Assembly: GCA_020148045.1 (NCBI GenBank)
Contig: JAHCRG010000007.1
Coordinates: 22,914 to 86,913, forward strand
Length of the DNA: 64,000 nucleotides
From: Patescibacteria group bacterium
GTDB taxonomy: Bacteria > Patescibacteriota > Minisyncoccia > Minisyncoccales > GWA2-38-27
Direction of reading: 5' to 3'
Both the position numbers and the translations under genes were made by a program. The notes beneath the pieces are model-generated. The model made no database searches and was not told the DNA's origin. It was given only the letters and a program-made list of their open reading frames with translations. Shown here one piece after another: positions 2,794-63,962 of this stretch. Every line of letters starts with the position of its first letter. The first letter of the stretch is position 1.

Positions 2794-4518
2794 CTAGCTA
2801 TATAGTAATGCACGGACCTTAGGAATTTTTCTCATCCATACAATAATTGATATAAAAAAGACAAAAGCGGCTGTGCCGATGAGGAAAGAATTCGGCAGGT
2901 AATACATAGTTATCTCTCGATTATATCTATTTACCGGAATGCCTATTAACCCACGGTGATTAATGACTTGGCCCTGAAATGAATGCCACCCGGGAAAATA
3001 ATTCTGATTTATTACTAAAATATCCTCCTCTTCTACAGCTATACTAAATTTGAGTTTGTTCGCAGAGAAGTATATCTGTTCTACCTTCCCCGAATTATTC
3101 AATAAAAAATACTCTCCCCTATAACCCTGCCTTTCTCTTGGAATAACTTTTGTCTGGATCTGGCTTCCAATATTGTCATACCCATACACCAGTCCTTGAT
3201 TATTATAGATACTTTCAAACATTTTTTTGCTATTGCCGCTAGACTGGGAAAATGCACTTTCTCGATTACTTAAATTATATCTTATTATTGTGCTCTCTTT
3301 AAAAATTTTTCTAGCGCAATTAAAGACATTGAAAGAAATTAAAGAGAATAAAATTAGGACAGCGAAGAAAGGCAGTTTAAGCAAGCGCGGAAGTCTCTTC
3401 TGCAGTTCCTGTATTACCAGGCCCAAAGATAACGATAACATTGCAATTAATGGCCCAAAGAATTTTTTAGGCTCTTTAAACGCACTTAGAAAAAAATGCA
3501 AAATCCGCCATAAGTTGACCGGGCTATTGTCACCTAAGGCCAGTAAAAGGAAAATCGCATTTATAGCTACCAATATCTTGTATTTGCGCCATAATAAAAA
3601 AACGCTTAAGACAAACAAAGAAATCGTAATAATTGAAAAATGATACCCGATCATCTCTTCATTTATGAATCGCGAAGCAATATATGTATTCTCTCTTGAG
3701 AAGAAAAAGTGTCTTAGTTCAAGTAATCCCGCATATATATTATTCATATTAAGAAAGCCGGGAAATGGCGGCAATCCTGTATGGCGGGGGTATTGGTTTA
3801 ATAGTTCCAGCATAGGAAAAAGCTTTATGCCTCCCAAAAAGAGAACAAATAAAGCTATTTTTAATAATAATAAAATAAATTTTGCTTCTTTTTTAACAAT
3901 TGCATAATAAATTGCATCGATAGATATTATCATACACGTCATAATAAAAATATAAATATTTCCCGCATAGATAATGAGGGCAAGAAGAACTGAAGCAACT
4001 AGGAGATATTTTTTTTGAATCTTGCTTTTCTGGAAGAATAAATATATCCAAGGAAGGAAGGATATATTTAAAAATGTAAATCCGCCAACAAAGGTTAAGA
4101 TATTAAAAATGTTTAAGAAGAAGATAGAGCTTAATAAGCTTAAGATATAGCCTAGCCCATAGTGGCGTGACAAAAAATACATGCCTAGTAAACCCGTAAC
4201 TGCTTGAATAAGATAAATAATAATTGTTCCTTGAATGGTTCCAAAAAATAATATAAATATAAAATAGGGCGATAAGAAGTCTGAGTTAGGGCGAGCTAAC
4301 CATGGGGTCCCTCCGCTTAGATAAGGACTCCAGAGAGGAAACTGACGATAGAATAAAATAGTTTTTCTTTGCAGTTCATGGAAAGTAAAATATTTATCCC
4401 AGTCACACTGGTCAAGCGGTTGAAAACCGGAAAAAACAATTATCCACCACAATAATGCGATGGCAATAATAATAAAAATTGAAATCAAATCTTTTTTCAG
4501 CCGTAATTTATTCCCCAT
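2794..4518 (-). CDS. large polytopic membrane protein, YfhO-like glycosyl-transfer candidate
   Basis: 574 aa with more than 10 hydrophobic segments. The C-terminal soluble part, NQNYFPGWHSFQGQVINHRG, resembles the YfhO-family tail. A final TM helix is present. Confidence 0.4.
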   Translation of the reverse strand: MGNKLRLKKDLISIFIIIAIALLWWIIVFSGFQPLDQCDWDKYFTFHELQRKTILFYRQFPLWSPYLSGGTPWLARPNSDFLSPYFIFILFFGTIQGTIIIYLIQAVTGLLGMYFLSRHYGLGYILSLLSSIFFLNIFNILTFVGGFTFLNISFLPWIYLFFQKSKIQKKYLLVASVLLALIIYAGNIYIFIMTCMIISIDAIYYAIVKKEAKFILLLLKIALFVLFLGGIKLFPMLELLNQYPRHTGLPPFPGFLNMNNIYAGLLELRHFFFSRENTYIASRFINEEMIGYHFSIITISLFVLSVFLLWRKYKILVAINAIFLLLALGDNSPVNLWRILHFFLSAFKEPKKFFGPLIAMLSLSLGLVIQELQKRLPRLLKLPFFAVLILFSLISFNVFNCARKIFKESTIIRYNLSNRESAFSQSSGNSKKMFESIYNNQGLVYGYDNIGSQIQTKVIPRERQGYRGEYFLLNNSGKVEQIYFSANKLKFSIAVEEEDILVINQNYFPGWHSFQGQVINHRGLIGIPVNRYNREITMYYLPNSFLIGTAAFVFFISIIVWMRKIPKVRALLYS

Positions 4519-4568: not shown

Positions 4569-5288
4569 TTAGTAGTGAGGCTTTGCATAATATTTGTTTG
4601 GGCTTGAACATTTTTTAAGCATCTTTTCATTCTGCTGCTCTTGAGCTTTCCCAGTACTGCCGATAAACAATATTTTTTCTTTAACTTGAACATTTCCTAT
4701 GCCCTTTGCGAGAAAGAGTTCTTCTGTAATACGCAGCGCTGTCTTCGCCTTGAAAACAAAAAAAGTAGAAATTTTTAAGCAATTCTTAAATCTACCTGCG
4801 GGGACACTGATATCTTCAGTCCCTTCCAACTTGACTTCTCTTTCAATTATGCCTTCCTCAATTAACCTATCTTTAGTGTCGTAAACTTGCATTTTCGAAT
4901 AACTGTTATATTCCCGGCCTATTTGTAGCCTGCGGGGGAAAAACAGCAAGCCGGAAGAACAGATTATATATCTATCGGCTTCTTTAATTTTATACAAATA
5001 AATACCTTCCCCTTCTAAACTGTAGTAAAAAATAGGAAATCTGTCTTTATCTGGTTGAAAAAGATACGCCTCCTTATTATTTAACTTTTCTTTCGAGGCA
5101 ATTGCGCTAACGCTGTTAATCTCAGATCCTTTTTTGCCTTCTAGAAAATGCCAACCTTGATATTGCCACTCAAATCCAACATCCATGGGAAAATAGCTAG
5201 AGATATCGAAAAACCTTGCTGTTAAGAAAATATAACTTAAGGCAAAAGAAATGCAAAGCGCAAAAATAATTAAGAAGGCCTTTTTCAA
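4569..5288 (-). CDS. exported/anchored hypothetical protein, paralog family member 2
   Basis: 239 aa with the signal/anchor MKKAFLIIFALCISFALS and the motifs FPMDVGFEWQY, VPAGRFKNC and LAKGIGNVQVK. Confidence 0.6.
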   Translation of the reverse strand: MKKAFLIIFALCISFALSYIFLTARFFDISSYFPMDVGFEWQYQGWHFLEGKKGSEINSVSAIASKEKLNNKEAYLFQPDKDRFPIFYYSLEGEGIYLYKIKEADRYIICSSGLLFFPRRLQIGREYNSYSKMQVYDTKDRLIEEGIIEREVKLEGTEDISVPAGRFKNCLKISTFFVFKAKTALRITEELFLAKGIGNVQVKEKILFIGSTGKAQEQQNEKMLKKCSSPNKYYAKPHY

Positions 5289-6076
5289 TCTCTCTCACCC
5301 TTCTTTTTCTTGGCTAAAACCATCGCTGCTCCTATAGCTGCAGTTAATTGCGGAAGAGCAAGCCTTTTAATGTCCATCATAATCTCTTCTTGTAAAGCAA
5401 ATAACAAGTTATTATTCTGCGCGGGGCCGCCGTCCAGATAAATCTCTTGCTCAATATATAATCCTCGCATCAGGTCAGATAGCCTTCTTGCTATAGACTG
5501 ATGTATTCCGGATATAATATCTTCTTTCTTGGCTTTTTTATATAAAAGAGATGCTATTTCGCTTTCAACAAAGACAGCACATGTGCTATTGATGCTAACT
5601 GCCTGGAGATTCTTTCCCTCTAAATTCCCAAATTCATTAATGGGGGTATCTAATATCCTTGCTGCCTTTTCAAAAAATCTACCTGTTCCTGCTGCACACT
5701 TATCATTCATTCTAAAATCCAATGTTTTCCCATCGGAACGAATTTTAATAACCTTGATATCTTGTCCCCCTATATTGACTATTGTCCTGGCAGTTTTATT
5801 GCTTAAATGATAGGCCGCTGTGGCAATTGCTGTAATTTCATCTACTTTTTTTTCTGCTGCTGGGAAAATCCGTTTTCCATAACCTGTAGTAGCGATACCC
5901 GAGAGTTCTCGTTTTTGTATGGAAAGCGCCCTTAGTCCTTCTTTTAAGAGTTCTTCCGATATCTTAAAATTGCCAAAAGTTGCAGGAGCAACTTTTGACC
6001 AAAGCAATCTATTCTCCTCATCAATAAAGACAACCTTAATCGCGGCTGTTCCCAAATCAATGCCTGCTATTAGCAT
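5285..6076 (-). CDS. BcrAD/BadFG-family ATPase, 2-hydroxyacyl-CoA dehydratase activator (HgdC-like activase)
   Basis: 263 aa with GIDLGTAAIKVV (ASKHA phosphate-1), NDKCAAGTGRFFE (the cluster-bridging Cys region typical of activases) and DGGPAQNNNL. Confidence 0.8.
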   Translation of the reverse strand: MLIAGIDLGTAAIKVVFIDEENRLLWSKVAPATFGNFKISEELLKEGLRALSIQKRELSGIATTGYGKRIFPAAEKKVDEITAIATAAYHLSNKTARTIVNIGGQDIKVIKIRSDGKTLDFRMNDKCAAGTGRFFEKAARILDTPINEFGNLEGKNLQAVSINSTCAVFVESEIASLLYKKAKKEDIISGIHQSIARRLSDLMRGLYIEQEIYLDGGPAQNNNLLFALQEEIMMDIKRLALPQLTAAIGAAMVLAKKKKGERD

Positions 6077-6091: not shown

Positions 6092-7321
6092 CTAGTGAAG
6101 TGTCTCCTTAAAGGCCTCAAGCCTTAATAATATGCCCTCTTTATCCTCTACAGAATAATCTGTCTCTATTCTTATAAAATGATAGCCATTCCTTTTTACT
6201 GCTTTTTCGAAACTAAAACTCTCCATATCAAAAGGATGGCATCCTTTAAAGACATGATAGACCACACCTTTTATGTTACGCTCTTTCATTGCTACTAAAG
6301 TATTCTTTATTTTGCGCTCATTATCTACGAATGTAGGGCAGGTACAAGAAAGTTGGTACCTCTCTGCTACGGCTCTAAGAAGTTCATATTCAGAGGTCCC
6401 ATCGTAAACTATGCTATTAAAAAGCCTTTCGGACGTACATAAACTGTCGGCTACAATAAACATGCCTATCTCTTCAATTAATTCAGAAATCTTCAAATGC
6501 GGGAAAAACAAAGGGGAGCCAGCAAGAAATATTTGTGGTTTTTCATTATGGCCAGAATTATTATAGCTGTTAAGAAGTTTGTTTGTATTTTCTATCCAGG
6601 ATTCAACATCATCCAGCATAAAGGCATTGGCTATAATAATACTCCATGTACCAGAAATTAGCCCCTTGCACCGCAGTTCGATTAAACGACTGAATGTTCC
6701 CCAGGCCCTCATATATTTATGGATCGAGCTCAAAAAATTCTTACAATTTAATTTCTTTTTTGTGTATCTTTCTAGATATCTTTTCAAATCATAGGATTCC
6801 TCCAGCCATCTTTTTTGGCTTTTTTCGCTTTCCTTCGCATGGGGTAATTCCATCTGGTAAATGTGTTTTTTCTTTTCCTTTATTATCTCGGGAATCTTAA
6901 CTCTCCAGTCACAACTAGTAGGCATTACTACTAGGTCGCACAATTTTTCTAATGATTGTTCTAAATGGTAGGGGCTGACAGAAGATTTAATCACAGGACA
7001 AGCTAAAATAGGTAAAAAGGATGACGAAAGTTTTTGCACGCATAAGGATCCGCTGCATAATCTAACGGGATGGAATCCAAATGCATCTAACAGTTCTAAT
7101 GGAACACTATTGCAGTAAAGACCGGCAAGAGGATTTTTAAATCTTTCCTTAAATCTTTGGGGATAAAGTGGCAACGAAAGGACTTCTAAAAAATATTCAA
7201 GTTCCTTAATAAAGTCGTCCCTTGTTTTGAGGGAAGCAATTTCTCTTTGGGTTTCCCTGAGGACCTCCTGGTAAACTTTTTCCTGCATTTTTCTGTTTAC
7301 ATTCCCAGGCAAAACTACCAT
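6092..7321 (-). CDS. 2-hydroxyacyl-CoA dehydratase family (HGD-D-like) protein, single subunit
   Basis: 409 aa and Cys-rich (LYCNS, LACPVIKSS, MPTSCDW, CTCPTF). Its size and its adjacency to the activase fit the HgdA/B-like family. The ATG overlaps the upstream stop (ATGGTAG). An alternative start is M12 at 7288. Confidence 0.55.
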   Translation of the reverse strand: MVVLPGNVNRKMQEKVYQEVLRETQREIASLKTRDDFIKELEYFLEVLSLPLYPQRFKERFKNPLAGLYCNSVPLELLDAFGFHPVRLCSGSLCVQKLSSSFLPILACPVIKSSVSPYHLEQSLEKLCDLVVMPTSCDWRVKIPEIIKEKKKHIYQMELPHAKESEKSQKRWLEESYDLKRYLERYTKKKLNCKNFLSSIHKYMRAWGTFSRLIELRCKGLISGTWSIIIANAFMLDDVESWIENTNKLLNSYNNSGHNEKPQIFLAGSPLFFPHLKISELIEEIGMFIVADSLCTSERLFNSIVYDGTSEYELLRAVAERYQLSCTCPTFVDNERKIKNTLVAMKERNIKGVVYHVFKGCHPFDMESFSFEKAVKRNGYHFIRIETDYSVEDKEGILLRLEAFKETLH

Positions 7322-8304
7322 TGCAATCTATGCCTCCTTTTAAACCAATCGGAAAAGTATTTTTTTGAGGAAGAAATAATATTTTTCTTTAGGAATGTGG
7401 CAGATAATGCCTTATCTTGCGGACATGCCTCTATGCATTTTAAGCAGAGATTGCAGTTTTCTTTAAGGACATCTTTCTCTTTTTTCTCTAAATACACTTC
7501 TTTAATATCCATGGGGCACACGCGCCAACAATTTCCGCAACCAGTGCAAGAATCCGCCTGCTTTTTAAGCCGGGGAAGACCAATTCTACGAAATGTATCA
7601 AAGAGAGCTCCAACAGGACAGATAAGGCAAAAGATGCGATCTCGGAACATAATTCCTACTAATACAATCCCTGCCAAGGCCGAGGTAGCAATACTTGTCC
7701 AAAATCGTTGTATGCCAACAGTAAAATCAACGGCCTGGTTTAAGAAATTCCCTTCAAATGGCGGTAGAAATAGCTTAACCGGGCATATCCTGCAATATGG
7801 CGGGTCGATATCTCTGGGGAAATCGCTAATTAAGTAAAAGTGGACACCTAAGAAAAGTATTAGTAATATATATTTAACTATCCGCAAATTTCTCTTTGTC
7901 CTATAAGAGATTTGACACTCTCTAATTGAAAACCTTCTTCTCATTGAGGCAATCCAATCCTGAAATGTGCCGAATGGACAAGCCCAACCGCACCAGAATT
8001 TACTAAATATTAAAGCAACTACAAAGAAGCTTAGGAATAAACGTAAATATGCACCGGAACAACGCCAAATAATAGTATATCCGGGGAAAGGCATCATTCC
8101 TCTCTCCTTCTCCGGATCCATTTTTATTCCATATTGCAATCGCTGTAGTGGCAATAAATAACAACCGCCGCCTAAATAGCTGTCATTGTTAGAACATTGC
8201 TGAGCGGGAAAGAGATTGCCAGCCCGCAGCCCAAGATAACCACCATAAATTAAAAATAAAAAACTTAAAATTTGGATTAAATAACGAATTCGATAAACTT
8301 TCAT
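7315..8304 (-). CDS. NapH/MauN-type integral-membrane polyferredoxin
   Basis: 329 aa with TM helices, two CX3CP motifs (CGWACPFG, CLICPVG) and two ferredoxin motifs (CTGCGNCWRVCP, CNLCLKCIEACP). Confidence 0.8.
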   Translation of the reverse strand: MKVYRIRYLIQILSFLFLIYGGYLGLRAGNLFPAQQCSNNDSYLGGGCYLLPLQRLQYGIKMDPEKERGMMPFPGYTIIWRCSGAYLRLFLSFFVVALIFSKFWCGWACPFGTFQDWIASMRRRFSIRECQISYRTKRNLRIVKYILLILFLGVHFYLISDFPRDIDPPYCRICPVKLFLPPFEGNFLNQAVDFTVGIQRFWTSIATSALAGIVLVGIMFRDRIFCLICPVGALFDTFRRIGLPRLKKQADSCTGCGNCWRVCPMDIKEVYLEKKEKDVLKENCNLCLKCIEACPQDKALSATFLKKNIISSSKKYFSDWFKRRHRLQW

Positions 8305-9212
8305 AATTTAGATTTCTTTCTTGCAATAATTGCGCCAGTAAGCGAAAGAACAACCGACAAAATAAATATAGTGGTACCCTTTTTCATATCTAGATCCCTT
8401 CTTTGCGTGGCTACATGGCACTTGTGTTTAAATAAAACTGTGTAAGCATATTTATAGACTATGCTGCCTAAGATACGTTCTGCAACGACTAAATTTTGGC
8501 CAAAGCCCTTTTGTCCTTTTTGAAACGCTCCCGGATTCCGAGGAATATAGAAAAAACTACCATTTTTATCTGTCTTTATTTGTTGAATATTTCCGGAATT
8601 ATCAATTACATCCACCTCTTGATAGCCAAAGGGCTTCTTGTCAAAGGCCACTGTAAGCCTTATAGGAAAACCAAACCTGCGATAGAGGGTATTACCTTCG
8701 TTTATATGCTCTCGATAAATAACCATATCAAACCGATTGTCAGTCTCTGTCGGGGAATACCTGCTCTCTCCACCCAAGCTCTTGCTATTGCCAAAGAGGA
8801 AGAAAGACGCCTTTGCCAGAAAATGGTATTTTATTTCTCTTTTAAATTTCTTTCCCTTGACTAAAACCGTATACCTGTTTGTGTCTGTTGAATTAATACA
8901 AATATATGGCTTATTCTCTTCCGTTCCAATCTTTAGTTTATAAAAAATTATTTCATTCTTTTTGTCTTTTTTGTCAAATGTATAGATTGCCTCAAGCGCG
9001 TCTAATTGGGAAATATCCTTTTTTTGGTCAGGGAACTGACCATAACAGATATATAGCAATTGAGTTACACTGCCATCTTCATTTTTAACCTCATTGCCAT
9101 ACTCGAGCCAGAGATAATCATCCTTCAGCAAACTTCCATGGGCCTTTTGGGCGCCTATGCTCGTTAAGTTAAGAAAAAGAACTATTGCTATAACTAAATT
9201 ACTCCGCATCAC
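8301..9212 (-). CDS. exported protein with C-terminal membrane anchor, function unknown
   Basis: 303 aa with the signal peptide MMRSNLVIAIVLFLNLTSIGAQKAHG and the C-terminal TM GTTIFILSVVLSLTGAIIARKK. The beta-rich segment DVIDNSGNIQQIKTDKNGSFFYIP looks like a transthyretin/CarboxypepD_reg-type fold. Confidence 0.45.
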   Translation of the reverse strand: MMRSNLVIAIVLFLNLTSIGAQKAHGSLLKDDYLWLEYGNEVKNEDGSVTQLLYICYGQFPDQKKDISQLDALEAIYTFDKKDKKNEIIFYKLKIGTEENKPYICINSTDTNRYTVLVKGKKFKREIKYHFLAKASFFLFGNSKSLGGESRYSPTETDNRFDMVIYREHINEGNTLYRRFGFPIRLTVAFDKKPFGYQEVDVIDNSGNIQQIKTDKNGSFFYIPRNPGAFQKGQKGFGQNLVVAERILGSIVYKYAYTVLFKHKCHVATQRRDLDMKKGTTIFILSVVLSLTGAIIARKKSKL

Positions 9213-9975
9213 TTTCCCATGTCTTTCCTGCGATAACCGCTTTTTTAAGCTTGAATACCTCGGTAAACGGGCCGCAGTATCTATTCATTATAGTTTTTTC
9301 TCCGGCCCTAATATATCTTAAATTTTGAAGAGGAATAAATGTGTGCATAAATTTGACAAACCCCAGCCCGGGAGCAAGCCAAAAATTATAGATATGCATT
9401 TTTTTACTATTCTCTGCTGCATCTCGATAATTATGCCTTACAAAGAAATGGATACATTTAAATTTTCCTGCTTCTACAGCTATATCTTCAAACCCCACGA
9501 AACTAATGTTGGCTTCTATTCTTTCCTTATCGATTAAGTTGCCTTCATAGTCATAGATAGATTGGATAGCCGAGGAAGAAATATTTTTTCCTAATTCGGA
9601 GGGTATCATTAAAAGCGGTGGGGAGAATTCTCTTATTACCTTCAAAGGCACCTCCCCTACCAGATGCTTATTCATGCAAAACAATATGCCTTTAGAAGAA
9701 AGTATATTTGTCTGAATGCGATCGTTATATTCGCCCTGCCAGAGAAAATTAAATTGTCTGCCCTCAGCTACCTGCTTAACATTTTTAACAGTTATAGTTA
9801 CTATGCCTTCAACAGAACCCTCCCGATGCGCATATATGTATTGATCATTTTCATTTAAAGGGAAAAAATCAGATGCAAAAGAAGGGCTCTTTACTTTCAA
9901 AATATAATGCAAGCTTAGAGTTATAAAAATTATTAATATTATACCCGTCGATAGCCGGTTAAATAATTTTTTCAT
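9199..9975 (-). CDS. exported/anchored hypothetical protein, paralog family member 3
   Basis: 258 aa with the anchor GIILIIFITLSLHYIL and the motifs FPLNENDQYIY, VEAGKFKC and WLAPGLGFVK. Confidence 0.6.
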   Translation of the reverse strand: MKKLFNRLSTGIILIIFITLSLHYILKVKSPSFASDFFPLNENDQYIYAHREGSVEGIVTITVKNVKQVAEGRQFNFLWQGEYNDRIQTNILSSKGILFCMNKHLVGEVPLKVIREFSPPLLMIPSELGKNISSSAIQSIYDYEGNLIDKERIEANISFVGFEDIAVEAGKFKCIHFFVRHNYRDAAENSKKMHIYNFWLAPGLGFVKFMHTFIPLQNLRYIRAGEKTIMNRYCGPFTEVFKLKKAVIAGKTWESDAE

Positions 9976-10015: not shown

Positions 10016-11485
10016 TTAATTCTTGCCGATATTTAATCTCTTGTTTGCCGTGCTCAATAGATACAATATATACCTGTTGATTAAGACATACCCGCCGTAA
10101 AAGAATTTCCAAAGATTTGCTTTTCTGTATCTTAAATAAGATATAATCACTTTGGGCCTCAGGTAAAATTCACACATTGCTTTTCGCTGAAAATTTAGCA
10201 AATCCTTAGCGTCCATATCGCATGGGACATAGACAGGGTTACCACTGCAATCAGCCCAATCGTGCCAGGAAGTAAACTTTTCCGGCTCAAAAATAGAATC
10301 TGTATTTTTAAAGAGGTCTTCAAAGAACTTGGAGCCTGGATAGGGAACGGCAAGGTTGAATTTTGTAACATCGCAATTTAATTCTTTAGCAAACTTGATG
10401 GTCTCTTCACATGTCTCTTTTGTCTCCCCGGGTAAGCCTAAAATAAATGAGCCTAATGTATATATCTTCGATTTCTTAACAATCCTCATTGTCCTCCTTG
10501 CTTGCTCTAATGTAGTTCCTTTATTATTCCTATCTAAAACGGCCTGGTTTCCCGACTCAAGGCCAAACATGACCAGATGAACGCCTGCCCTCTTCATCAT
10601 CAGCAGTAATTCTTCATTTACTAAATCTACCCTGGTCTCTGTGCACCACTTAATCTTTTTATGCAGGCCTCTTTGAATCAGTTCTCTGCAAAATTGCAAA
10701 CCGAATTCTATAGAAAAAGGGAAATTGGTATCAAAAAAACCAAAATATCGGGCATCATATCTATTGCACATATATTCTAATTCTTTTATAATATCCTCGC
10801 TCTTTCTATAATTTGGCCTTGGATAAATTTTGTCCTGGGCGCAAAATGAACATCTATAAGCGCATCCCCTCGAGCCTAAAATTGGCAATGCCAACTGTTT
10901 ATCTATAATTGCAAGCGGAATATCTGTATAACGCCTAAGGTCAAAAAGATGCCATGCGGGATAAGGCAGTTCATCTAAATTTCTAATAAAAGGCCTGTCT
11001 GGATTGTGGGTTATAGAATTCCCATCTAGAAAACTAATGCCTCTTACACTGCGTAAATTGCCTTTTTTCTTAATCGCTAAAGCAAGCTCCAAAGTCGTAA
11101 CTTCGCCCTCTCCTCTCACAATAATATCCCCGGTTTTTTGCCCTAACAGTTCTTCTGCAAAGATTGTAGCATGGATGCCTCCTAATGCTATCGGGGCATT
11201 GCTAAATCCCCTTATTTGATTAACAAGTACTTTTACATTATTAATTGTCGGCGTAAGGCAAGAGAAACCTATAATTCCCGGATTATATTTTTTAATTTCG
11301 TCTAGAAGTCTTTTGTTATTCATCTTATTGGCAAATTGATCTATAGCCTTAACTTCTATGCCTGCTTTCTCAAGAACAGCGGCAATAGAAGCAATGCCAA
11401 AAGGAAGAATGGGGCGAAAAAAGCTTCTAAGTTTTTGGCTTTTTTCGACCAAAGCCGATGTAGGGTTTACTAATAATATTTTCAT
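10016..11485 (-). CDS. B12-binding-domain radical SAM enzyme (class B), paralog A1
   Basis: 489 aa. The N-terminal Rossmann B12-binding-like domain reads MKILLVNP...IIGFSCLTP...ALGGIHAT...IVRGEGE. The CX3CX2C motif lies in LGSRGCAYRCSFCAQD. It is closely similar to 12702..14198 (KWCTETRVD, AVPYPGSKFFED). Confidence 0.85.
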   Translation of the reverse strand: MKILLVNPTSALVEKSQKLRSFFRPILPFGIASIAAVLEKAGIEVKAIDQFANKMNNKRLLDEIKKYNPGIIGFSCLTPTINNVKVLVNQIRGFSNAPIALGGIHATIFAEELLGQKTGDIIVRGEGEVTTLELALAIKKKGNLRSVRGISFLDGNSITHNPDRPFIRNLDELPYPAWHLFDLRRYTDIPLAIIDKQLALPILGSRGCAYRCSFCAQDKIYPRPNYRKSEDIIKELEYMCNRYDARYFGFFDTNFPFSIEFGLQFCRELIQRGLHKKIKWCTETRVDLVNEELLLMMKRAGVHLVMFGLESGNQAVLDRNNKGTTLEQARRTMRIVKKSKIYTLGSFILGLPGETKETCEETIKFAKELNCDVTKFNLAVPYPGSKFFEDLFKNTDSIFEPEKFTSWHDWADCSGNPVYVPCDMDAKDLLNFQRKAMCEFYLRPKVIISYLRYRKANLWKFFYGGYVLINRYILYLLSTANKRLNIGKN

Positions 11486-11520
11486 AATTTATTATTACTT
11501 ATAGGAGTTTCCCTACCAAA

Positions 11521-12705
11521 TTAACCCCAATATTTAAAAATTTCGCCTGAAATAATCTCTTTCAAAAACCTGCTGTAATTATTAGCATCGTTTTGTTTAT
11601 ATTCAGGGTTAATCCTAACAGTTTGTTCGGCAATTTTTATACAATATCTGCAATCTTCGCAAGAATTGAGGTAGCAGTCTTCTTTCAAGAAATGGTCTAT
11701 AAAGCCATCTAACTTTCTATTGTCAATATAGACATCTAAATCTTTCAGCAGGCCTTTTTTTCTAACTAATTTAAATATATTTACCGCAAATGGATGGAAG
11801 AAGTATTTTATTTTATGGAGAAAATTTGGCCTTTTAAGCCATAGGCTCTTTGATGGATTCATAAACAGGTCATACAAGTTGCCATCGTGTTTCCTGTTTA
11901 AATAAGTATCTACAATAAAGGCGATGGCTTCGGTGGTCATATTCCTATCTACAACCTTGAATTTTTCAATGCCCATGTCTTCATAAACTGCAATATCCTC
12001 CGGCCTTATCCACGCCGAACGGATAAAATTTACTGGGTCGGCAATCATCTTGCTCCTGCACATAAACCGGCAATAATCGAACATAAAGATTCCCAGCTTA
12101 CTCGATGTTTGCGAACCGTGTGAACTAAGATTATGGTGGTAAAGAAATAACGGACAATCTTGGATGCAATTATCATTTACAATAAGTTGCAATTCGCATC
12201 TTACGCTTTCCTTAATCTTTTTCATCAATTTAAATCTGCGTGTCATCTCGGTTTGCGGCAAAGTGATTATTGAAGCCCCTAAGTCTTCCCAAAACTTGGC
12301 CTTAATTACCGAATTGACATGGGCAAAACAAGATACCGAAATTTCGAAATGGGGGTAATGCTTCCTTATCAACTGCGTAAGATAGGGAATTGCTACCACA
12401 ACTCCGTCTGCCTTAATTTCAGACAACCAAGTTAAAAGTTCATGTATTCTCTTCTGGCCAGACCCGGTCAATTCTCGACCGCCTATACAAGTAGAATTTA
12501 AGATATAATAAAATTTTAAGCTATTATTATGGATTTCACAGATGTGTTTCTTTATTTGCTTCTTTGTTACTTTTAGCGATATACAAGAAGGCCTTCCGCC
12601 TCCAAAAAAGTCCCTGTCCAATTTTCCATACACTGTGTCTATATTTGGTTTATTTATTTTCTTGATTAAATCGTTCTGCCAGTTTGTAGGAACCGTTAAC
12701 TTCAT
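11521..12705 (-). CDS. U32-peptidase-like (UbiU/UbiV/RlhA-type fold) protein, paralog B1
   Basis: The start was trimmed to the ATG at 12705, which forms an ATGA overlap with the upstream stop. The protein begins MKLTVPTNW. It has the TIM-barrel-like pattern ADGVVVAIPYLTQLIRKHYP and a Cys cluster region (NDNCIQDCP, DYCRFMCRS). It is a paralog of 14213..15265. Confidence 0.4.
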   Translation of the reverse strand: MKLTVPTNWQNDLIKKINKPNIDTVYGKLDRDFFGGGRPSCISLKVTKKQIKKHICEIHNNSLKFYYILNSTCIGGRELTGSGQKRIHELLTWLSEIKADGVVVAIPYLTQLIRKHYPHFEISVSCFAHVNSVIKAKFWEDLGASIITLPQTEMTRRFKLMKKIKESVRCELQLIVNDNCIQDCPLFLYHHNLSSHGSQTSSKLGIFMFDYCRFMCRSKMIADPVNFIRSAWIRPEDIAVYEDMGIEKFKVVDRNMTTEAIAFIVDTYLNRKHDGNLYDLFMNPSKSLWLKRPNFLHKIKYFFHPFAVNIFKLVRKKGLLKDLDVYIDNRKLDGFIDHFLKEDCYLNSCEDCRYCIKIAEQTVRINPEYKQNDANNYSRFLKEIISGEIFKYWG

Positions 12706-14198
12706 AGCAAGCAACGCCTTTTATTTTTATAATTCTTTGATTTAGCGATAATTCCTTTGAGTAGCATTGAAGCCAGCCACAAAAATCCAAGAAAAAGGTT
12801 TTTCAAGGTTACTGTTCTCTGTAAAATATGGTTCATAATAGCCCTAGGCCTTACATAAAAATCAAACATTGCTCTCCTCTGCAAATATCTCAGGGTCTCG
12901 CTGTCTAAATCTTCCGGGCAATAAACAAGGTCGCCTTTTGCTGATGTCCAATCGCTCCAACTAGTAAACTTTTCTGGCTCAGCTACCTTTTTATTATGCC
13001 TGATGAAATCTTCAAAGAATTTGGATCCGGGGTAGGGAACGGCAATATTAAACTTTACCAAGTCGCATCTTATCTCCTTTGCAAATGTTATAGTCTCCAT
13101 ACAAGTGTCTTTAGTCTCACCCGGAAGTCCAAGCATAAACAGGCCCTGGCTCAATATCCCGGCTTTTTTTGTTTCCTGTACTGCTATTCTCGCCTGTTCT
13201 AAGGTAGTTCCTTTATGGATACTTTTAAGGATTCTTTTATTTCCGACTTCTATGCCATACATAATAAGATGCACCCCTGCTTCTTTCATTGCCTTTAATA
13301 GTCCCGGGGAAACCTTATCAACTCTTGTCTCTGTACACCACTTAAGCTTTTTGTGCAGCCCGCGCTTTATCATGATATTGCAAAACTTTAATCCGGATTC
13401 CTCATCGAAAGGAAAATAGGCGTCGGAGAATCCAAAATACCGTATTTTACAAGAAGTTAAGAAGTATTCTATTTCATCGACAACCTTATTTAAATCGCGA
13501 TACCTTACCTTAGCGTATACAGTGTCTTGAGAACAATAATAACATCTATAAGGGCACCCTCGTGACGCCATTATCGGTATTGCCCTTGAATTAGATATCG
13601 CAGATAGAGGAACTTCACTATAATCATCTAAATTTAAAGCATCCCATGCCGGAAAAGGCAGTGCATCAAGATTATCAATAAGCCTGCGCTCTGGGTTGTG
13701 TCTTATTCCTCCAGGCAAACGGAAACTAATGCCGGCTACATCCTCTAATTGTTTGCCCTGCATAAGATGATTGCATAACTCCAGCATAGTTGTTTCTCCC
13801 TCTCCCCTCACTACAATATCAGCTGTGTAATCCTTAAGCATTTCTTCAGGAAAACAGGTGGCATGAATATTACCCAAAACAATTTTACTGCTAATTCTTG
13901 ACTTGCGGATCAGTAAAACCAGCCTTCTAATATCGGGCATAACCGGCGTAAGCGCAGAGAAACCTATAATAAACGGCTTTTGCTTTTTGATAGAATCGAT
14001 AAGTTCGCTGTCAGGCATCTTTCTTGCATACTGGTCGATAACAGAGACCTTTAGGCCATTGTTACGGAGCACGGCGGCAATATAGCATAGTCCAAGCGGA
14101 GCGATAGGAGTGCAGAATCTGCGGTAGCCCCAACTGTTATTTATTAATTTAGAATTAGGATTTATAAGCAAGACATCCGTATCTCTTTGCATTTGCAC
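12702..14198 (-). CDS. B12-binding-domain radical SAM enzyme (class B), paralog A2
   Basis: 498 aa with a B12-binding-like N-terminal domain and MASRGCPYRCYYCSQD. It has long identical stretches with 10016..11485. Confidence 0.85.
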   Translation of the reverse strand: MQMQRDTDVLLINPNSKLINNSWGYRRFCTPIAPLGLCYIAAVLRNNGLKVSVIDQYARKMPDSELIDSIKKQKPFIIGFSALTPVMPDIRRLVLLIRKSRISSKIVLGNIHATCFPEEMLKDYTADIVVRGEGETTMLELCNHLMQGKQLEDVAGISFRLPGGIRHNPERRLIDNLDALPFPAWDALNLDDYSEVPLSAISNSRAIPIMASRGCPYRCYYCSQDTVYAKVRYRDLNKVVDEIEYFLTSCKIRYFGFSDAYFPFDEESGLKFCNIMIKRGLHKKLKWCTETRVDKVSPGLLKAMKEAGVHLIMYGIEVGNKRILKSIHKGTTLEQARIAVQETKKAGILSQGLFMLGLPGETKDTCMETITFAKEIRCDLVKFNIAVPYPGSKFFEDFIRHNKKVAEPEKFTSWSDWTSAKGDLVYCPEDLDSETLRYLQRRAMFDFYVRPRAIMNHILQRTVTLKNLFLGFLWLASMLLKGIIAKSKNYKNKRRCLL

Positions 14199-14212
14199 AG
14201 GCCCTTAAAATT

Positions 14213-15265
14213 TCAAACTGTTTCGAAGAGTTTATTAATCTCTTTCAATAAGCATTCTTTTTTGGTCTGATCAACCGAGACCTCTACGCTGTCCATATAA
14301 AAGGTATCCTTTGTTAAATATATCTTTAACAGGGACTTAATATGCCTTTCCTTTGAAAGTACGCCATAGAGCTCTTTGCGATTGCAGAAATATAAGCATT
14401 TGAGGCCGGTCCTAATAAAAAGCGTGGGAAAAAATTTTAAGAGAATGCTAATAATCGAAGAATATCTACTTTCCGCAACCGAAGTGTTTACTAACCTAAA
14501 ACAATTGCCGTTATAGCTTTTTTGGGAATATGCCATCGCACAATTAATAATCCAGTTGGCAGGCTTGGTTCTTCCCCCCAGTTTAAGGAAATCAACCCCT
14601 ATCCCCTCATATTTTTTCACATCATTTGGGTAAATAAACCCCGTCTCTCTAAATAATGAGGGATTGTTTAATTTTAGCTTTAAGCACTTGAATATCCCTT
14701 TTTGAAAGTGCCCTGCGCTCTCTAAGTGCTCTCTCCAATAAGGGCAATTGGGAAGGCAGATGTTATTTGCCAAAAGCTTTATCTGTAAAGCTGTCTTTTG
14801 CTTGACCAGCCTGATAAACTCCAAATCGCTATTTTTAGTATAATCTAAGCAAATGACGTCACAGTCGAGTTCTTTAAATAGCATTGCCTCCTTAAGAGAA
14901 TCGATTTTGCAGGCAATGGAACTGCAGATTTTGAAAGGATATTCCTTCTTAACGAATGAAATAAAGCTGTAATTGGAGGCAGTTACCATATCCACATTGA
15001 TTTTGCTGAGTCTATCTAAAAGAGCAATCCTCTGTTTGGTAATAGTTATATTGGGATGATTTAGGACATAGTTAAATTTGATGCCTAATTCATGAGAGTA
15101 TTCTACATATTCTTTAAATCTTCCCGTATCAACTTTAGGCAAAGCGTACGAAGGCAAAACAGTTCCGCCGGCATCATTCTGTAAACTACCATAAGTATCG
15201 TGGACTGTGCCTTTCAGCTTTTCGAGAATCCTAAAGTCAAAGTTTGTGGGGGCGGATATCTTCAT
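14213..15265 (-). CDS. U32-peptidase-like protein, paralog B2
   Basis: 350 aa. MKISAPTNFDF and NNICLPNCPYWREHLESAGH align with MKLTVPTNW and NDNCIQDCPLFLYHHNLSSHG of 11521..12705. Confidence 0.4.
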   Translation of the reverse strand: MKISAPTNFDFRILEKLKGTVHDTYGSLQNDAGGTVLPSYALPKVDTGRFKEYVEYSHELGIKFNYVLNHPNITITKQRIALLDRLSKINVDMVTASNYSFISFVKKEYPFKICSSIACKIDSLKEAMLFKELDCDVICLDYTKNSDLEFIRLVKQKTALQIKLLANNICLPNCPYWREHLESAGHFQKGIFKCLKLKLNNPSLFRETGFIYPNDVKKYEGIGVDFLKLGGRTKPANWIINCAMAYSQKSYNGNCFRLVNTSVAESRYSSIISILLKFFPTLFIRTGLKCLYFCNRKELYGVLSKERHIKSLLKIYLTKDTFYMDSVEVSVDQTKKECLLKEINKLFETV

Positions 15266-15272: not shown

Positions 15273-16796
15273 TTATTCTAACAGAAGTCGCATAATATAA
15301 ATTAATGCTTCTGCATTTTTATTTTTATTGTATCCTTTTCTCGCCAGCAGCCAGCCGTCCTCCATATGCACTACTCCGTAGTTATCTTCCGCCAAAAAGT
15401 ATTTTAATTGCAAGAGAAGTTCTTTCCTATCGATGTGATAAAGGTCGTCTTTTAGCAAATCTACAAATATATAATCCCATTTATATTTCCTGATAAGGAC
15501 TTCTCGGGATAACACACCCAAGAATTTACATCGTCCAAGGTGCGGCGCTAAGGATTGTAAAGTTATGCAAGATGCTCCGGAAGGAATCTTCTTTAATAAT
15601 TTATGTCCGATTTCGCTATGTCTTGTGGGCCTGTAATATCCAAAATGAAAATTTTTGCTAAATGGCATAGGCCCCAACTTATCCCCAAATACGCCTTTCG
15701 GCTTTACATAATAGTGCTGCAGAAATGCAACTATTAAGATCAGTACAGCTAATATCTTATGTAATAATTCCTTTTTTATGCCTTTATATTTAACAAAGAA
15801 CTTATTAATGGCCTTCTCTGTTCCATATACAGCGCCGGCAAAGATAAAGGCTAAGATTAAAAAATGTCCCGAGGAATGCTGATTTCTGAGCAATATAAAC
15901 CCTATTTCTGGTATGATAGGCAGAAGATGCAAAGGGGACAAAAATACAAAGATATTAGGCAAAGGATAAAAAGCATAAAGGAACATATTGTCTAGGTTGA
16001 AGAGATTTTTTATAAACAACGATGGGTTATTTAAAGCGTATCGCAAAGCCTCTATCAGACTACTGCCGTATCGGTCAAAATGCAACATTGGCGCGGGGAA
16101 AGACTGAGCTGTTAATTTAAGATAAATAAAGCAAAGGCCCGTTGTAACTATTAGCCAAATAGAGCTGATTTTTACAACTGTTTTTCCATATTTGCTTTTT
16201 GCTTTAGAAAAGGATAGGATTAACCCCAAAATAAGAGTCATTACCACTGTATCGACCTTTGACATATTAGCTAAAATTATAAAAAAAATGAATTTCCCGA
16301 AATTCTCTTTTTCCAAATAATAAAAAGCAAACAAAAGGAAAGGCAGCCCCAGCGAAAGAGGAATATAGCCTAACATTGCGCCTGTGGTTACAATAGGATG
16401 CAAAAGATATGCGATAGAAAAGGCGCCGGCTAAATAGGCACTATACAAGCGCTTTCTTGCGAGAAAATATATAGGCAGAGCCGCGCTTGCCATTATAATA
16501 CTTTGAAAAATATATAGTGCTTCGGCTCTGAGAATAAATTTATAGATAAATGCGATTAGGTAATTAATAGGAGTGAACAAAAAAAACAATACAGCATATT
16601 CGGGGCAAACATATACATTAAAAATACTGATACCTTCAGATAATTTTGGATAAATATGTATGAACTGCCATCCAAATAAAGTAGGAGAAAATATTTTAAA
16701 TTTTAAAATATTTATAAAAGCGAAGGCGATTGCAAAAATTAGGCTAAAGACGCAAATTATAATAAAGCTTAAATTATAATGTTTGTTGGAGCTCAT
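15273..16796 (-). CDS. large polytopic membrane protein (GT-C / DUF2079-like candidate)
   Basis: 507 aa with about 12 hydrophobic helices and a C-terminal soluble domain. It lies next to a CE4 deacetylase. Confidence 0.3.
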   Translation of the reverse strand: MSSNKHYNLSFIIICVFSLIFAIAFAFINILKFKIFSPTLFGWQFIHIYPKLSEGISIFNVYVCPEYAVLFFLFTPINYLIAFIYKFILRAEALYIFQSIIMASAALPIYFLARKRLYSAYLAGAFSIAYLLHPIVTTGAMLGYIPLSLGLPFLLFAFYYLEKENFGKFIFFIILANMSKVDTVVMTLILGLILSFSKAKSKYGKTVVKISSIWLIVTTGLCFIYLKLTAQSFPAPMLHFDRYGSSLIEALRYALNNPSLFIKNLFNLDNMFLYAFYPLPNIFVFLSPLHLLPIIPEIGFILLRNQHSSGHFLILAFIFAGAVYGTEKAINKFFVKYKGIKKELLHKILAVLILIVAFLQHYYVKPKGVFGDKLGPMPFSKNFHFGYYRPTRHSEIGHKLLKKIPSGASCITLQSLAPHLGRCKFLGVLSREVLIRKYKWDYIFVDLLKDDLYHIDRKELLLQLKYFLAEDNYGVVHMEDGWLLARKGYNKNKNAEALIYIMRLLLE

Positions 16797-16821: not shown

Positions 16822-17622
16822 TTACACCTTTCGGGATAAATAATTATGGATTGTCTCTGCCCTGAGGTCCTTTCTTTTGCACCATGCCAGAAAGTTATCC
16901 AGCAAGCCTAAAGTCTTATTTCCCGTATTGCGTGTTATCACATAAGGCAACTTAAAAGGCATTTTCCGGTCAATATTAGCAAAGTCCCAAGAATGAAAAT
17001 AAATGTTGATATAGTCATGAGTAAAGAGCGCCCAAGATGTGCAAAATTTAGCATAATTCAGGCCAAACCATCGAAACCAAATCCAAGAGAAAGGCAACCT
17101 GATAATTGGAGTAACCGAGATAGGAATATTTACTAATCCGCTCTTTGACTTCATTCTCCTAGATTTCAAAAAATTACAATAGCGACCGGGGACATATGTA
17201 GGATGGCAACTGTTGTCATAATCAAATCCAGACTTTCTAACAATATCAAAAGGCAAAACAACTAATTTGTGATTTTTGAAACCGTAAATCTTCGTCCTTA
17301 TATTCTTTTCTATTTTTTCTTTGATATATTTAATCTCGGCAATGGTCTCCTGGGCATTGCCATTTTTTTTATAATCTATGTTAGCATGAAGGCCCACTTC
17401 ATGCCCATCAGCGATTAATTGCCTTAATAGGTCGGGATACGTCTCTGATATCTTCTCAGTAACAAAAAAGGTAATTTTAATTGAATGGTCTCTAACAACT
17501 TTAAGCAATCTCTGTATTCCCGCAAAAGCTGTCTCGAGCATTAATTCTTCCGATATCGCTGCTCCGAAATCAAAAGGCAGGCTAAACTCCTCAAAGTCGC
17601 ATGCTAATAGCAATATTTTCAT
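16822..17622 (-). CDS. polysaccharide deacetylase (CE4-like)
   Basis: 266 aa with ITFFVTEKISETYPDLLRQLIADGHEVGLHA, an H-x-x-x-x-H metal motif in the NodB-like pattern. Confidence 0.65.
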   Translation of the reverse strand: MKILLLACDFEEFSLPFDFGAAISEELMLETAFAGIQRLLKVVRDHSIKITFFVTEKISETYPDLLRQLIADGHEVGLHANIDYKKNGNAQETIAEIKYIKEKIEKNIRTKIYGFKNHKLVVLPFDIVRKSGFDYDNSCHPTYVPGRYCNFLKSRRMKSKSGLVNIPISVTPIIRLPFSWIWFRWFGLNYAKFCTSWALFTHDYINIYFHSWDFANIDRKMPFKLPYVITRNTGNKTLGLLDNFLAWCKRKDLRAETIHNYLSRKV

Positions 17623-23149: not shown

Positions 23150-24572
23150 AGTATTCTGGAATAAGCACCTTATCTAAAAGTTGAGGATCTTTTTTAGACA
23201 TCTCAGAAATCATTGCTATCATAAGTTTTGTCTTATAACGAAATAATTCGCAATAATAAGGATTTGGTTCTCTTAAATTTTTATTTGCGAAATAATTTAA
23301 GTTGTAACAAGAACCGCAACCCCTACAAATCCTTCTTGCCCAACATTTGTTGCAGGCATCACTTGAAGAAATTTTGATAGCTGTAAAGTTTTTTAGTTTT
23401 TTCTCATTTATCCCATTATTTACTGTTCCTATTCTACACTCTGGAATTCCTATAAAGGCAGTGCAAGGATATAAACTTCCATCCATATCAACTGCAATAA
23501 GACTGAAACCCGCAGAACAAGTTCCTACAACTGACTGAATATGATATAAGCGGCTTAGCTGTTTAAAGAAACGATTAAAATAGGTATTCTCATAAGCCAA
23601 GCTTCCTTTAATAATCTCTTGGGTGTAAAAAATAGCTAAATTGTAGTAAAGGGATTTAAGCTTCCGTAGTCCATCCGGACCAGAAAAGAAAAACTGATTA
23701 TTTGATTCTAATCCATAACCGGCTTTCTCACTTTCACAAACCTCTATACGCTCAAATCCTAAACCGCGTAAAAATTTAAATGTACTTATAATTTTGGTAT
23801 AATAAGGAGTGAACGTTGCCCTTCCCACTATGCGCCTTCTATACTTCCCTTTAAGAGAATTTATATTATCTATTATTACCTCAAAAGAACCTCTGCCATC
23901 AGGAAAAGGGCGCTGAACATCCTGAATCTTCTTTGAACCATCAAGACTCACAGCAATATCCACCCCATTTTCAATTAAAAATTTAGCCCTTTCTTCAGTA
24001 AGCAGCGTTCCATTAGTAGCAAGCAAGAAACGGAAGTTAATCTTCTTTTTCTTCTGAATCTTTCTACAATATTCAACAGTTTCTCTAATAAGGTTGAAAT
24101 TTAAAAGAGGTTCGCCTCCATAAAAATCTACTACTAAATCTTTAGCACCTTTTGACTCCTTGATTAATAGATTTACTGCTTTAAATGCAACTTTTTCCTC
24201 CATTTTTTGTTTGCCTGTGAAAAAACCGCCATAGGCACCACTTTGATTCCAACAATAGCGGCAACGTAGATTACAGTTATTTACAATATTTAATGTAACA
24301 TCGGTTATCTTCCTTTCAATATCTCTATCATTCTTTACCTGCACTGGTGAAAAAAGGATTCTTTTTTTCTTTAATTTGGATAAATTCCTGATAGCCACAG
24401 CGACAGATTCATATTCATATTTCCCGCTGAGTCGATGCATTACTTCTCTTTCAGGATAGCGATGCAATAGAGTAATAGCTTCTGCAGCAATCTTATCTAC
24501 TTCAAAAAAATTACCGCTCCCGATATCTACAGCAAAGCTTTTACCCCACATTTTAAATTGGTAAACTTGCAT
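23061..24572 (-). CDS. radical SAM/SPASM maturase-like enzyme (anSME / SCIFF-maturase-like architecture) with N-terminal RRE-like domain
   Basis: 503 aa with IVNNCNLRCRYCWNQ and the canonical SPASM tail CSAGFSLIAVDMDGSLYPC...CNKCWARRICRGCGSC. The N-terminal ~90 aa (FAVDIGSGNFFEVDKIAAEAITLL) resemble the peptide-recognition lead of peptide maturases. Confidence 0.75.
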   Translation of the reverse strand: MQVYQFKMWGKSFAVDIGSGNFFEVDKIAAEAITLLHRYPEREVMHRLSGKYEYESVAVAIRNLSKLKKKRILFSPVQVKNDRDIERKITDVTLNIVNNCNLRCRYCWNQSGAYGGFFTGKQKMEEKVAFKAVNLLIKESKGAKDLVVDFYGGEPLLNFNLIRETVEYCRKIQKKKKINFRFLLATNGTLLTEERAKFLIENGVDIAVSLDGSKKIQDVQRPFPDGRGSFEVIIDNINSLKGKYRRRIVGRATFTPYYTKIISTFKFLRGLGFERIEVCESEKAGYGLESNNQFFFSGPDGLRKLKSLYYNLAIFYTQEIIKGSLAYENTYFNRFFKQLSRLYHIQSVVGTCSAGFSLIAVDMDGSLYPCTAFIGIPECRIGTVNNGINEKKLKNFTAIKISSSDACNKCWARRICRGCGSCYNLNYFANKNLREPNPYYCELFRYKTKLMIAMISEMSKKDPQLLDKVLIPEYYATRGKRKGEKYAKNTLSKASEVSLAFYK

Positions 24573-24737: not shown

Positions 24738-24744
24738 GAAAACC

Positions 24745-24825: not shown

Positions 24826-24843
24826 AGCCACGCCTCCTTTCCC

Positions 24844-47772: not shown

Positions 47773-47773
47773 T

Positions 47774-54161: not shown

Positions 54162-54164
54162 TTT

Positions 54165-63706: not shown

Positions 63707-63781
63707 TGCACCCGAATTTACTTAGGCCCTAAATAAAAATACCTTTCAGCCCTATCCCTCGTAGAGCTCAAAGCATCTTCA

Positions 63782-63937
63782 CAATTTGGGCAGGTCTTCT
63801 GACTTCCGGCCTTCTACTTATCAGGCCTTCCCATCCTTAAAAGGACAGTGGCTAACTCTGACTTTCGCTACCGGTTACAGCGACGGGACCGCGCTCGATT
63901 CTCACGAGCTTCCCTATTAAGCCGCAACACCCAATCT
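63782..63937 (-). promoter_or_regulatory. cobalamin riboswitch aptamer (classical architecture)
   Basis: The minus strand reads TTAATAGGGAAGCTCGTGAGAATCGAGCGCGGTCCCGTCGCTGTAACC...GCCACTG...GGGAAGGC...AGTCAGAAGACCTGCCC (B12 box). The P1 candidate is TTGGG/CCCAA. Confidence 0.85.
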
Positions 63938-63962
63938 GCGATATATTAAATTGTCAATCTTA

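Follow-up and report, generated by a model that had tools for sequence, protein, structure and literature searches.

The window analysed here is a 64,000-nucleotide stretch of contig JAHCRG010000007.1, from a genome labelled Patescibacteria group bacterium, and all of its genes lie on the minus strand. Within it, four consecutive genes encode two predicted cobalamin-type (class B) radical S-adenosylmethionine (SAM) proteins, here called A1 and A2, and two proteins related to the U32 family, here called B1 and B2. Transcription runs from a DUF2079 gene through B2, A2 and B1 to A1, with spacers of 7, 14, -4 and 35 bp along this string. B2 (14213..15265, minus strand) encodes a divergent U32-family TIM-barrel protein of 350 residues, A2 (12702..14198, minus strand) a class-B radical SAM protein of 498 residues (496 from the ATG at 14192), B1 (11521..12705, minus strand) a 394-residue U32-family TIM-barrel protein of iron-sulfur (Fe-S) type with an extra C-terminal CX4CX2CX2C domain, and A1 (10016..11485, minus strand) a class-B radical SAM protein of 489 residues. 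The original prediction, made from the letters of this DNA, had placed four open reading frames (ORFs) at these coordinates and described them as an A2-B1 / B2...A1 arrangement; the genes are all present, on the minus strand, and their order is corrected to B2-A2-B1-A1. The ATGA overlap that it had seen coupling A2 to B1 is confirmed in the DNA, where the A2 stop and the B1 start at 12702..12705 (minus strand) read directly as ...cgt tgc ttg cta tga / atg aag tta.... The start of B1 is the ATG at 12705, which gives 394 residues identical to the NCBI protein, and not the TTG at 12714. Among related loci, which we number with the prefix L, the same 4-bp overlap recurs in L004, L028 and L030, and overlaps of other lengths are found in L029, L038 and L039. 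A promoter and terminator scan of the window performed no better than on shuffled sequence and is uninformative on operon structure. We conclude that B2-A2-B1-A1 is a co-transcribed, partly translationally coupled four-gene set.

By their domains and motif, A1 and A2 are cobalamin-type radical SAM enzymes, as the original prediction had proposed. Both have an N-terminal B12-binding domain (PF02310; 80.8 bits in A1 and 82 bits in A2, cut-off 32.1) and a radical SAM core (PF04055; 91.8 bits in A1 and 72 bits in A2), and the CX3CX2C motif is present as RGCAYRCSFC in A1 and RGCPYRCYYC in A2. The two proteins are 51% identical over 463 residues (E 4e-173). Of the eight B12 radical SAM genes in the window, theirs stand apart as a pair; none of the remaining six scores more than 196 bits against them. 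The shared stretches quoted earlier are likewise found in the translations, KWCTETRVD and AVPYPGSKFFED in both proteins, FTSWHDW in A1 and FTSWSDW in A2. The best match to a curated family is BchE (TIGR02026), at 232.6 bits for A1 and 214.3 bits for A2 against a cut-off of 481, and HpnJ (TIGR03471) is matched at 171.5 and 188.7 bits, respectively, against a cut-off of 578. Since these scores do not come near the equivalog cut-offs, neither family includes A1 or A2, and we rejected both assignments. BchE and HpnJ are not known to be methylases. There are also weak matches, far below cut-off, to radical SAM families of RiPPs (peptides made on the ribosome and modified after translation) such as ApyD (118-129 bits), and the nearest solved structures are remote, namely AprD4 (E 6.5e-17) and TsrM (9e-13), followed more weakly by CysS and TokK. 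Methylases and enzymes of other class B chemistry cannot be told apart by the sequence of the A proteins, and the methylase role that the original prediction gave them is no more than a candidate function.

The assignment of the B proteins to the U32 family had been offered only tentatively, from pattern resemblance, and three lines of evidence now bear it out: a Pfam match above cut-off, the fold of the predicted structures and a profile alignment that brings the Fe-S cysteines into register. B1 matches PF01136 (Peptidase_U32) at 46.4 bits against a gathering threshold of 22.4. All 50 aligned B1 homologues match PF01136 too, and distant homologues cover positions 3-193 of the profile. The AlphaFold2 (AF2) model of B1 has a predicted local distance difference test (pLDDT) score of 92.6, and its top Foldseek match in the PDB is 5d88 (Mk0906; E 1.8e-13, TM-score 0.76 on the target); for the B1 and B2 models alike, 5d88 is followed by matches to generic TIM barrels, none of them stronger than E 2e-5. 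Mk0906 is also the only significant sequence match of B1 in the PDB (E 4.9e-11). When an alignment of 50 B1 homologues was compared by hhalign with the four Escherichia coli proteins TrhP, RlhA, UbiU and UbiV, the probability was 97.1% (E 5.9e-11, 283 columns), and C180, C184, C212 and C216 of B1 fell on the Fe-S cysteines of the TrhP CX6CX15CX3C motif. The four-sequence E. coli alignment was needed to reach the cysteine region; against UbiU alone, the B1 family aligned over the N-terminal half only, with a probability of 61%, and against UbiV alone there was no significant match. In UbiU and UbiV, the cysteines at these positions are essential and bind a [4Fe-4S] cluster (PMC6747719, PMC11574389).

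Within the B1 family, C180 is conserved at 98%, C184 at 100%, C212 at 84% and C216 at 100%; the full four-cysteine motif is present in 74 of 101 B1-type ORFs, and the CX3C...C part of it in 101 of 101. The C-terminal motif C344-X4-C349-X2-C352-X2-C355 is 100% conserved, and C73 is invariant as well. So are many polar residues (D32, R38, N70, E78, S125, R156, N177, H190, H196, R234 and D237), a pattern more in keeping with an enzyme than with a scaffold. The TrhP model of NCBIfam (NF011996) scores B1 at 26.3 bits against a cut-off of 534, and no NCBIfam model covers the subfamily to which B1 and B2 belong. Judged on these sequence features, B1 looks competent for catalysis and belongs to a subfamily of its own among the U32 Fe-S 'oxidases'. 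Several other B1-type representatives of approximately 480-510 residues, among them P0275, P0343 and P0372, have approximately 90 additional C-terminal residues that weakly resemble DUF2621.

The window holds no U32-like genes other than B1 and B2, and their relationship is distant, with 25% identity over 280 residues (E 1e-24); in a profile-profile comparison, the B1 and B2 families match with a probability of 100% (E 3.7e-44). The short motifs that had first linked the two proteins are as quoted, B1 beginning with MKLTVPTNW and B2 with MKISAPTNF, and NDNCIQDCP in B1 corresponding to NNICLPNCP in B2. B2 reaches 22.6 bits with PF01136, a borderline score against the cut-off of 22.4, with no single stretch that passes alone, and it has no match to the NCBIfam TrhP model (NF011996). 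Its AF2 model (pLDDT 85.5) again has 5d88 as the top Foldseek match in the PDB (E 1.6e-8). B2 keeps C170, C174 and C194, equivalent to C180, C184 and C216 of B1, and has no equivalents of B1 C212, of C73, of the GGGR loop or of any of the C-terminal four-cysteine motif. Approximately 20 close homologues of B2 were found. B2 is a rare, partly degenerate paralogue of B1 in which three of the four cluster cysteines are kept.

The original prediction would have failed had the B proteins lacked significant U32 similarity or had the A-B adjacency not been conserved elsewhere, and it passes on both counts. Of 27 A-type genes, 18 lie immediately beside a U32-like gene of the same strand, and U32-like genes are present within 5 kb in all four of the loci that were retrieved by way of A homologues, directly overlapping in two of them. 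The position of the A gene relative to its partner also follows its type: A genes that abut or overlap a U32 gene from upstream score higher against A2 in 7 of 7 cases, and A genes that abut from downstream score higher against A1 in 5 of 6, the sixth (L009) being marginally A2-like and the margin in L003 and L020 being no more than 10 bits. An A1-type gene lies directly downstream of a B1-type U32 gene, and an A2-type gene typically lies directly upstream of a U32 gene, overlapping it. In L029, L059 and L088, an A gene is sandwiched between two U32 genes. Most Omnitrophota-type loci carry at least two U32 paralogues, and in Omnitrophota-type loci B12 radical SAM genes are the usual neighbours on the flanks of the U32 gene. 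The B1 family extends well beyond such loci. At 50% identity (E <= 1e-30) it forms 829 clusters, GTDB species representatives contain at least 552 of its loci, and its distant members (34-39% identity; from Planctomycetota, Myxococcota, Binatota and others) mostly have no adjacent B12 radical SAM gene. The A-B pairing is real but lineage-specific. Both protein families are known, and in the literature searched we found no description of a U32 protein paired with a B12 radical SAM enzyme.

The description of the four genes as a module duplicated in tandem holds in part. A1 and A2 are indeed paralogues, as are B1 and B2, but the A proteins are 51% identical and the B proteins 25%, and the A1 and A2 types form separate groups. 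In a neighbour-joining tree of A-type proteins, A2 of the window groups with those of L004, L038/39, L029, L088, L059, L032, L028 and L090, and A1 with those of L006 and L001, such that A2 is closer to the A2-type genes of other genomes than to its own neighbour A1. The alignment of the two copies at the DNA level, which the original prediction had suggested as a means of dating the event, yields only patches of 72-86% identity confined to the most conserved part of A, as expected of an old duplication. Against homologues from other phyla B1 reaches 277 bits or more, and against B2 it reaches 74 bits, from which we conclude that the duplication is ancient and strongly asymmetric. A recent tandem duplication was rejected on the patchy DNA identity, the affinity of A2 to foreign A2-type genes and the distance between B1 and B2. 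The picture of two modules is too simple in other ways as well: the ATGA overlap, the tightest coupling in the set, joins A2 to B1 across the supposed boundary, and two related loci have one A-type gene each. L004, the closest relative found, reads B2-A2-B1-DUF2079, and L006 reads B1-A1-x-B2-DUF2079.

Links between the B1 family and prephenate are found in relatives of B1. Chorismate mutase makes prephenate, and one family member, P0391 (924 residues; locus L091, 3179-5953), combines a chorismate-binding domain, a chorismate mutase and a B1-type U32 domain in a single fused protein, its gene being preceded by that of a glutamine amidotransferase. Chorismate-binding genes also adjoin U32-like genes in L005 (6889-8253) and L046 (8514-9911). 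Together, the fusion and the chorismate-related neighbours link the B1 subfamily to prephenate supply, and prephenate is reported to donate the oxygen in the UbiU/UbiV pathway (PMC11574389). In P0298 (628 residues), a B1-type U32 domain is fused to a class-I SAM methyltransferase. Several distant B1 homologues, from Planctomycetota and Binatota, lie in cassettes of a methyltransferase, a type III polyketide synthase (PKS), the U32 gene and a UbiE-type methyltransferase, or of a type III PKS, a flavoprotein and the U32 gene (L067, 2158-6458; L051, 4844-6645 and 9974-12041; L058, 7640-11290; also L062, L077 and L084). We found no description of these type III PKS-U32 cassettes in the literature searched, and they look like an O2-independent route to alkylquinone-like lipids. 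The idea that the B proteins are anaerobic hydroxylases, first raised from a guess at their family, thereby gains independent support from the chorismate mutase-U32 fusion and from the neighbourhoods of the distant homologues. The fusions and cassettes support the chemistry proposed for B, not its substrate.

Around the four genes lie others for cobalamin supply, redox proteins and glycan and envelope machinery. A cobalamin riboswitch (63772..63949, minus strand; Rfam RF00174, 110 bits, E 1e-26) heads a co-directional string of genes in which cobamide salvage and import genes come next and the radical SAM locus follows. From the riboswitch onwards, the minus-strand region 52152-63949 encodes CobU, CobT/DBI_PRT, CobS, CbiB and an aminotransferase, then an Asn-synthase-like and a diphthamide-synthase-like protein, two Peripla_BP_2 proteins, FecCD, an ABC ATPase and a TonB-dependent receptor. 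The presence of the riboswitch and of salvage and import genes in the same string would fit a requirement of the A proteins for cobalamin. Following the import genes are those for GT1 and GT4 family glycosyltransferases, an amine oxidase, an ABC-2 exporter pair, GH44 and several GT2 glycosyltransferases, the exporter pair and GH44-like gene (45037-48553) lying just upstream of the radical SAM stretch. That stretch (10016-42878, approximately 33 kb) holds 19 radical SAM genes, of which 8 are of B12 type and 11 are not, several of the latter with SPASM domains; its radical SAM genes are interleaved with GT2 genes, and at 40971-42878 a GT2 glycosyltransferase is fused to a radical SAM protein. 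Such a density of radical SAM genes beside glycan machinery is unusual.

Directly preceding B2 in transcription are the genes for a polysaccharide-deacetylase-family protein (16822..17622, minus strand; PF01522, 41 bits), which is syntenic in L004, the closest related locus, and for an integral membrane protein with DUF2079 (15273..16796, minus strand; PF09852, 128 bits), a family that we take to be grouped with the GT-C glycosyltransferases. In L001, L004 (where there are two copies) and L006, too, DUF2079 lies next to U32 or A genes. Downstream of A1, Pfam matches identify a Fer4_5 membrane polyferredoxin (7315-8304, minus strand) and a BcrAD-type ATPase (5285-6076, minus strand) on either side of an HGD-D protein resembling double-cubane cluster proteins (6092-7321, minus strand; best PDB match 6eno, E 1.9e-43, also 7yyl). 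We take 6eno and 7yyl to be the double-cubane [8Fe-9S] cluster protein. The trio of polyferredoxin, HGD-D protein and ATPase also lies downstream of the module in L004 and L006. Altogether, the gene families suggest that the locus looks like an anaerobic, cobalamin-dependent one for an exported, heavily tailored envelope glycoconjugate.

Some features of the window stand apart from this. Downstream of the four genes lie three DUF3108-like paralogues (2183-2788, 4569-5288 and 9199-9975), and a DUF3108-like gene follows the module in L006 too; three large ORFs in the same region (593-2179, 2794-4518 and 8301-9212) have no Pfam match. A tRNA scan found no tRNA or tmRNA genes in the window. The named close homologues are nearly all from Candidatus Omnitrophota, the window encodes a TonB-dependent outer-membrane receptor, and the source is labelled as a Patescibacteria group bacterium; we believe that this label is probably wrong.

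The reading that we favour, and to which we would give roughly even chances, is that B1, possibly with B2, is a prephenate-type, O2-independent Fe-S oxidase or hydroxylase that works with the A enzymes on one substrate. In the model that we infer, B1 would bind an Fe-S cluster and, like UbiU/UbiV/TrhP, oxidise or hydroxylate its substrate independently of O2, taking the oxygen from prephenate, and, by analogy with UbiU-UbiV, it may form a heterodimer with B2. The A enzymes would functionalise a C-H bond of the same substrate by radical chemistry, through either methylation or rearrangement, and A and B would act in a physical complex or in consecutive steps. Going by the neighbouring genes, the substrate would most likely be a lipid-linked precursor of a cell-envelope glycoconjugate, or an aromatic or lipid moiety attached to it, which this B12-dependent locus with its 19 radical SAM genes would make under anaerobic conditions.

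Several observations weigh against this model. Concerning the B proteins, B1 matches only positions 3-90 of the 233 positions of the PF01136 profile, its CX3C-X27-CX3C spacing departs from the canonical motif, and C212 is just 84% conserved, while B2 is borderline in Pfam and misses one cluster cysteine. As for the A enzymes, their sequence does not reveal what type of reaction they catalyse. Links to chorismate are scarce, amounting to a single fusion and two neighbours in approximately 80 loci, and all of them lie in relatives; in the window itself no type III PKS, chorismate-binding or chorismate mutase gene was found. To our knowledge, the known U32 oxidases act on aromatic or heteroaromatic rings, and no ring-forming enzyme was found in the window. 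The idea of a glycan substrate is drawn solely from the families of neighbouring genes. Given that many distant B1 homologues have no B12 radical SAM gene next to them, the partnership is specific to some lineages.

Much of the same evidence could be read differently, with B1 and B2 as Fe-S accessory subunits of the A enzymes in an obligate heteromer, feeding electrons to the radical SAM cluster or the cobalamin, or holding the substrate. The overlapping genes and U32-A-U32 sandwiches would suit such a heteromer, the two conserved candidate metal sites of B1 could form an electron relay, and B2 appears catalytically trimmed. Furthermore, the low-potential redox toolkit downstream of the module (the double-cubane-type protein with its ATPase and the polyferredoxin), which recurs in two related loci, indicates that electron supply matters. 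However, B1 has a full TIM barrel and the many invariant polar residues typical of an active site, its family is widespread without a neighbouring B12 radical SAM gene, and the fusions of B1-type domains to chorismate mutase or methyltransferases fit a chemistry of its own; nor do we know of any U32 protein that serves purely as an electron carrier. We consider the accessory role unlikely.

A bolder form of the oxidase model than the one we favour is a long shot, and we offer it in that spirit. A and B, or A with both B1 and B2, would together make up a dedicated anaerobic C-H oxidation machine of two or three components, in which A removes a hydrogen from an unactivated carbon of an envelope precursor linked to a lipid, or alkylates that carbon, and B delivers the oxygen of prephenate. 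If this were true, the chemistry would be one that has been described for neither family alone, and the envelope of Omnitrophota would contain a polymer or lipid whose oxygenated and branched groups are without precedent.

The public names of B1 and B2, 'U32 family peptidase' and 'collagenase-like PrtC family protease', suggest that B1 and B2 might be genuine U32 (PrtC/collagenase-like) peptidases, for example leader peptidases for a peptide modified by radical SAM/SPASM enzymes. The locus does contain the 11 non-B12 radical SAM genes mentioned above, several with SPASM, a class that is rich in peptide maturases, and the A proteins have their weak matches to RiPP families such as ApyD. Against this, the single sizeable intergenic gap (24572-24844) holds no convincing precursor-peptide ORF and the genes elsewhere are tightly packed, on which ground we rejected a RiPP cluster. 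The conserved cysteines of B1 align with those that bind Fe-S in the U32 oxidases, the surroundings speak of glycans and the envelope (GT4, GT1, GT2, the ABC-2 exporter, DUF2079 and the deacetylase), and a fusion to chorismate mutase would have no rationale for a peptidase. We regard a peptidase function as highly improbable.

Equally hard to credit is a merely incidental adjacency in a locus crowded with radical SAM paralogues: although there are 8 B12-type radical SAM genes in 33 kb, and in many related loci the neighbour of the U32 gene is a generic B12 radical SAM protein scoring 100-200 bits, a specific A-type clade abuts U32 genes in 18 of 27 cases where chance adjacency would by a rough estimate be approximately 0.1-0.2 (one gene among approximately 16 per locus), position agrees with the A1-like or A2-like score for 12 of the 13 genes that abut, reading frames overlap in different genomes, and U32 genes occur in 4 of 4 A-anchored loci.

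Returning to the oxidase model, the U32 oxidases were only recently recognised as O2-independent hydroxylases, and the roles of their Fe-S clusters and of prephenate are still an open matter (PMC11574389). As both the mechanism and the substrate range of these enzymes are unsettled, we believe that the pairing described here deserves attention. We know of only quinone and RNA substrates for U32 oxidases; if the partnership is functional, anaerobic oxygen-insertion chemistry would extend to new substrates, there would be a new experimental handle on the prephenate mechanism, and the locus would be a sign that a candidate phylum of which little is known makes envelope molecules that are B12-dependent and heavily tailored.

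On the side of the A enzymes, the closest comparison is with BchE and HpnJ, which share with them an N-terminal B12-binding domain and a radical SAM core. Both act in anaerobic lipid or pigment tailoring, and the logic of HpnI (a GT2 enzyme), HpnK (a deacetylase) and HpnJ resembles the combination of GT2, deacetylase and B12 radical SAM genes seen here. In contrast to the settings of BchE and HpnJ, the window has no chlorophyll or hopanoid genes, and no U32 partner of either enzyme is described in the literature searched. The distant B1 homologues recall another known system, the SrsABC-type cassettes of alkylresorcinol-to-alkylquinone pathways, which consist of a type III PKS, a methyltransferase and a hydroxylase. 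The type III PKS-U32 cassettes of the homologues are organised alike, the U32 protein taking the place of the hydroxylase; the window, however, does not contain such a cassette, and Omnitrophota-type loci have B12 radical SAM genes in place of the PKS and methyltransferases.

Among the U32 proteins themselves, Mk0906 (5d88) is the only one with a solved structure and is the top structural match of both B1 and B2. Its aligned stretch is a single cysteine-free segment, and so it does not share the cluster cysteines, nor does it have the C-terminal cysteine domain. The U32 RNA hydroxylases TrhP (YegQ) and RlhA (YdcP) give the best profile alignment to the B1 family, with all four Fe-S cysteines aligned, and RlhA, like B1, has extra C-terminal cysteines. 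In contrast to B1 and B2, both hydroxylases have additional C-terminal regions, and the context here is envelope- or natural-product-like rather than one of RNA modification.

A further comparison is with UbiU and UbiV (E. coli YhbU and YhbV), the O2-independent hydroxylases of ubiquinone biosynthesis, which form a heterodimer (PMC6747719). The likenesses are the PF01136 domain and the U32 fold as in 5d88, cysteines of B1 that follow the same beta-strand and align with the [4Fe-4S] ligands of the E. coli U32 proteins, two paralogous U32 genes per locus and a prephenate link, here through the chorismate mutase fusion in the B1 family. There are differences as well. The sequence relation of UbiU and UbiV to B1 is remote; the cysteines are spaced CX3C-X27-CX3C in B1, CX6CX16CX38C in UbiU and CXnCX12CX3C in UbiV; and B1 has the additional invariant C-terminal CX4CX2CX2C motif. 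There is no UbiT/SCP2 partner and there are no ubiquinone genes here, the partner instead being a B12 radical SAM enzyme and the host an Omnitrophota-type anaerobe. Set beside these systems, the locus and its relatives add a separate U32 subfamily with a variant cluster motif and an extra cysteine domain, natural fusions of B1-type U32 domains to chorismate mutase and to methyltransferases, and, in genomes of Omnitrophota type, a partnership with B12 radical SAM enzymes that is both conserved and translationally coupled.

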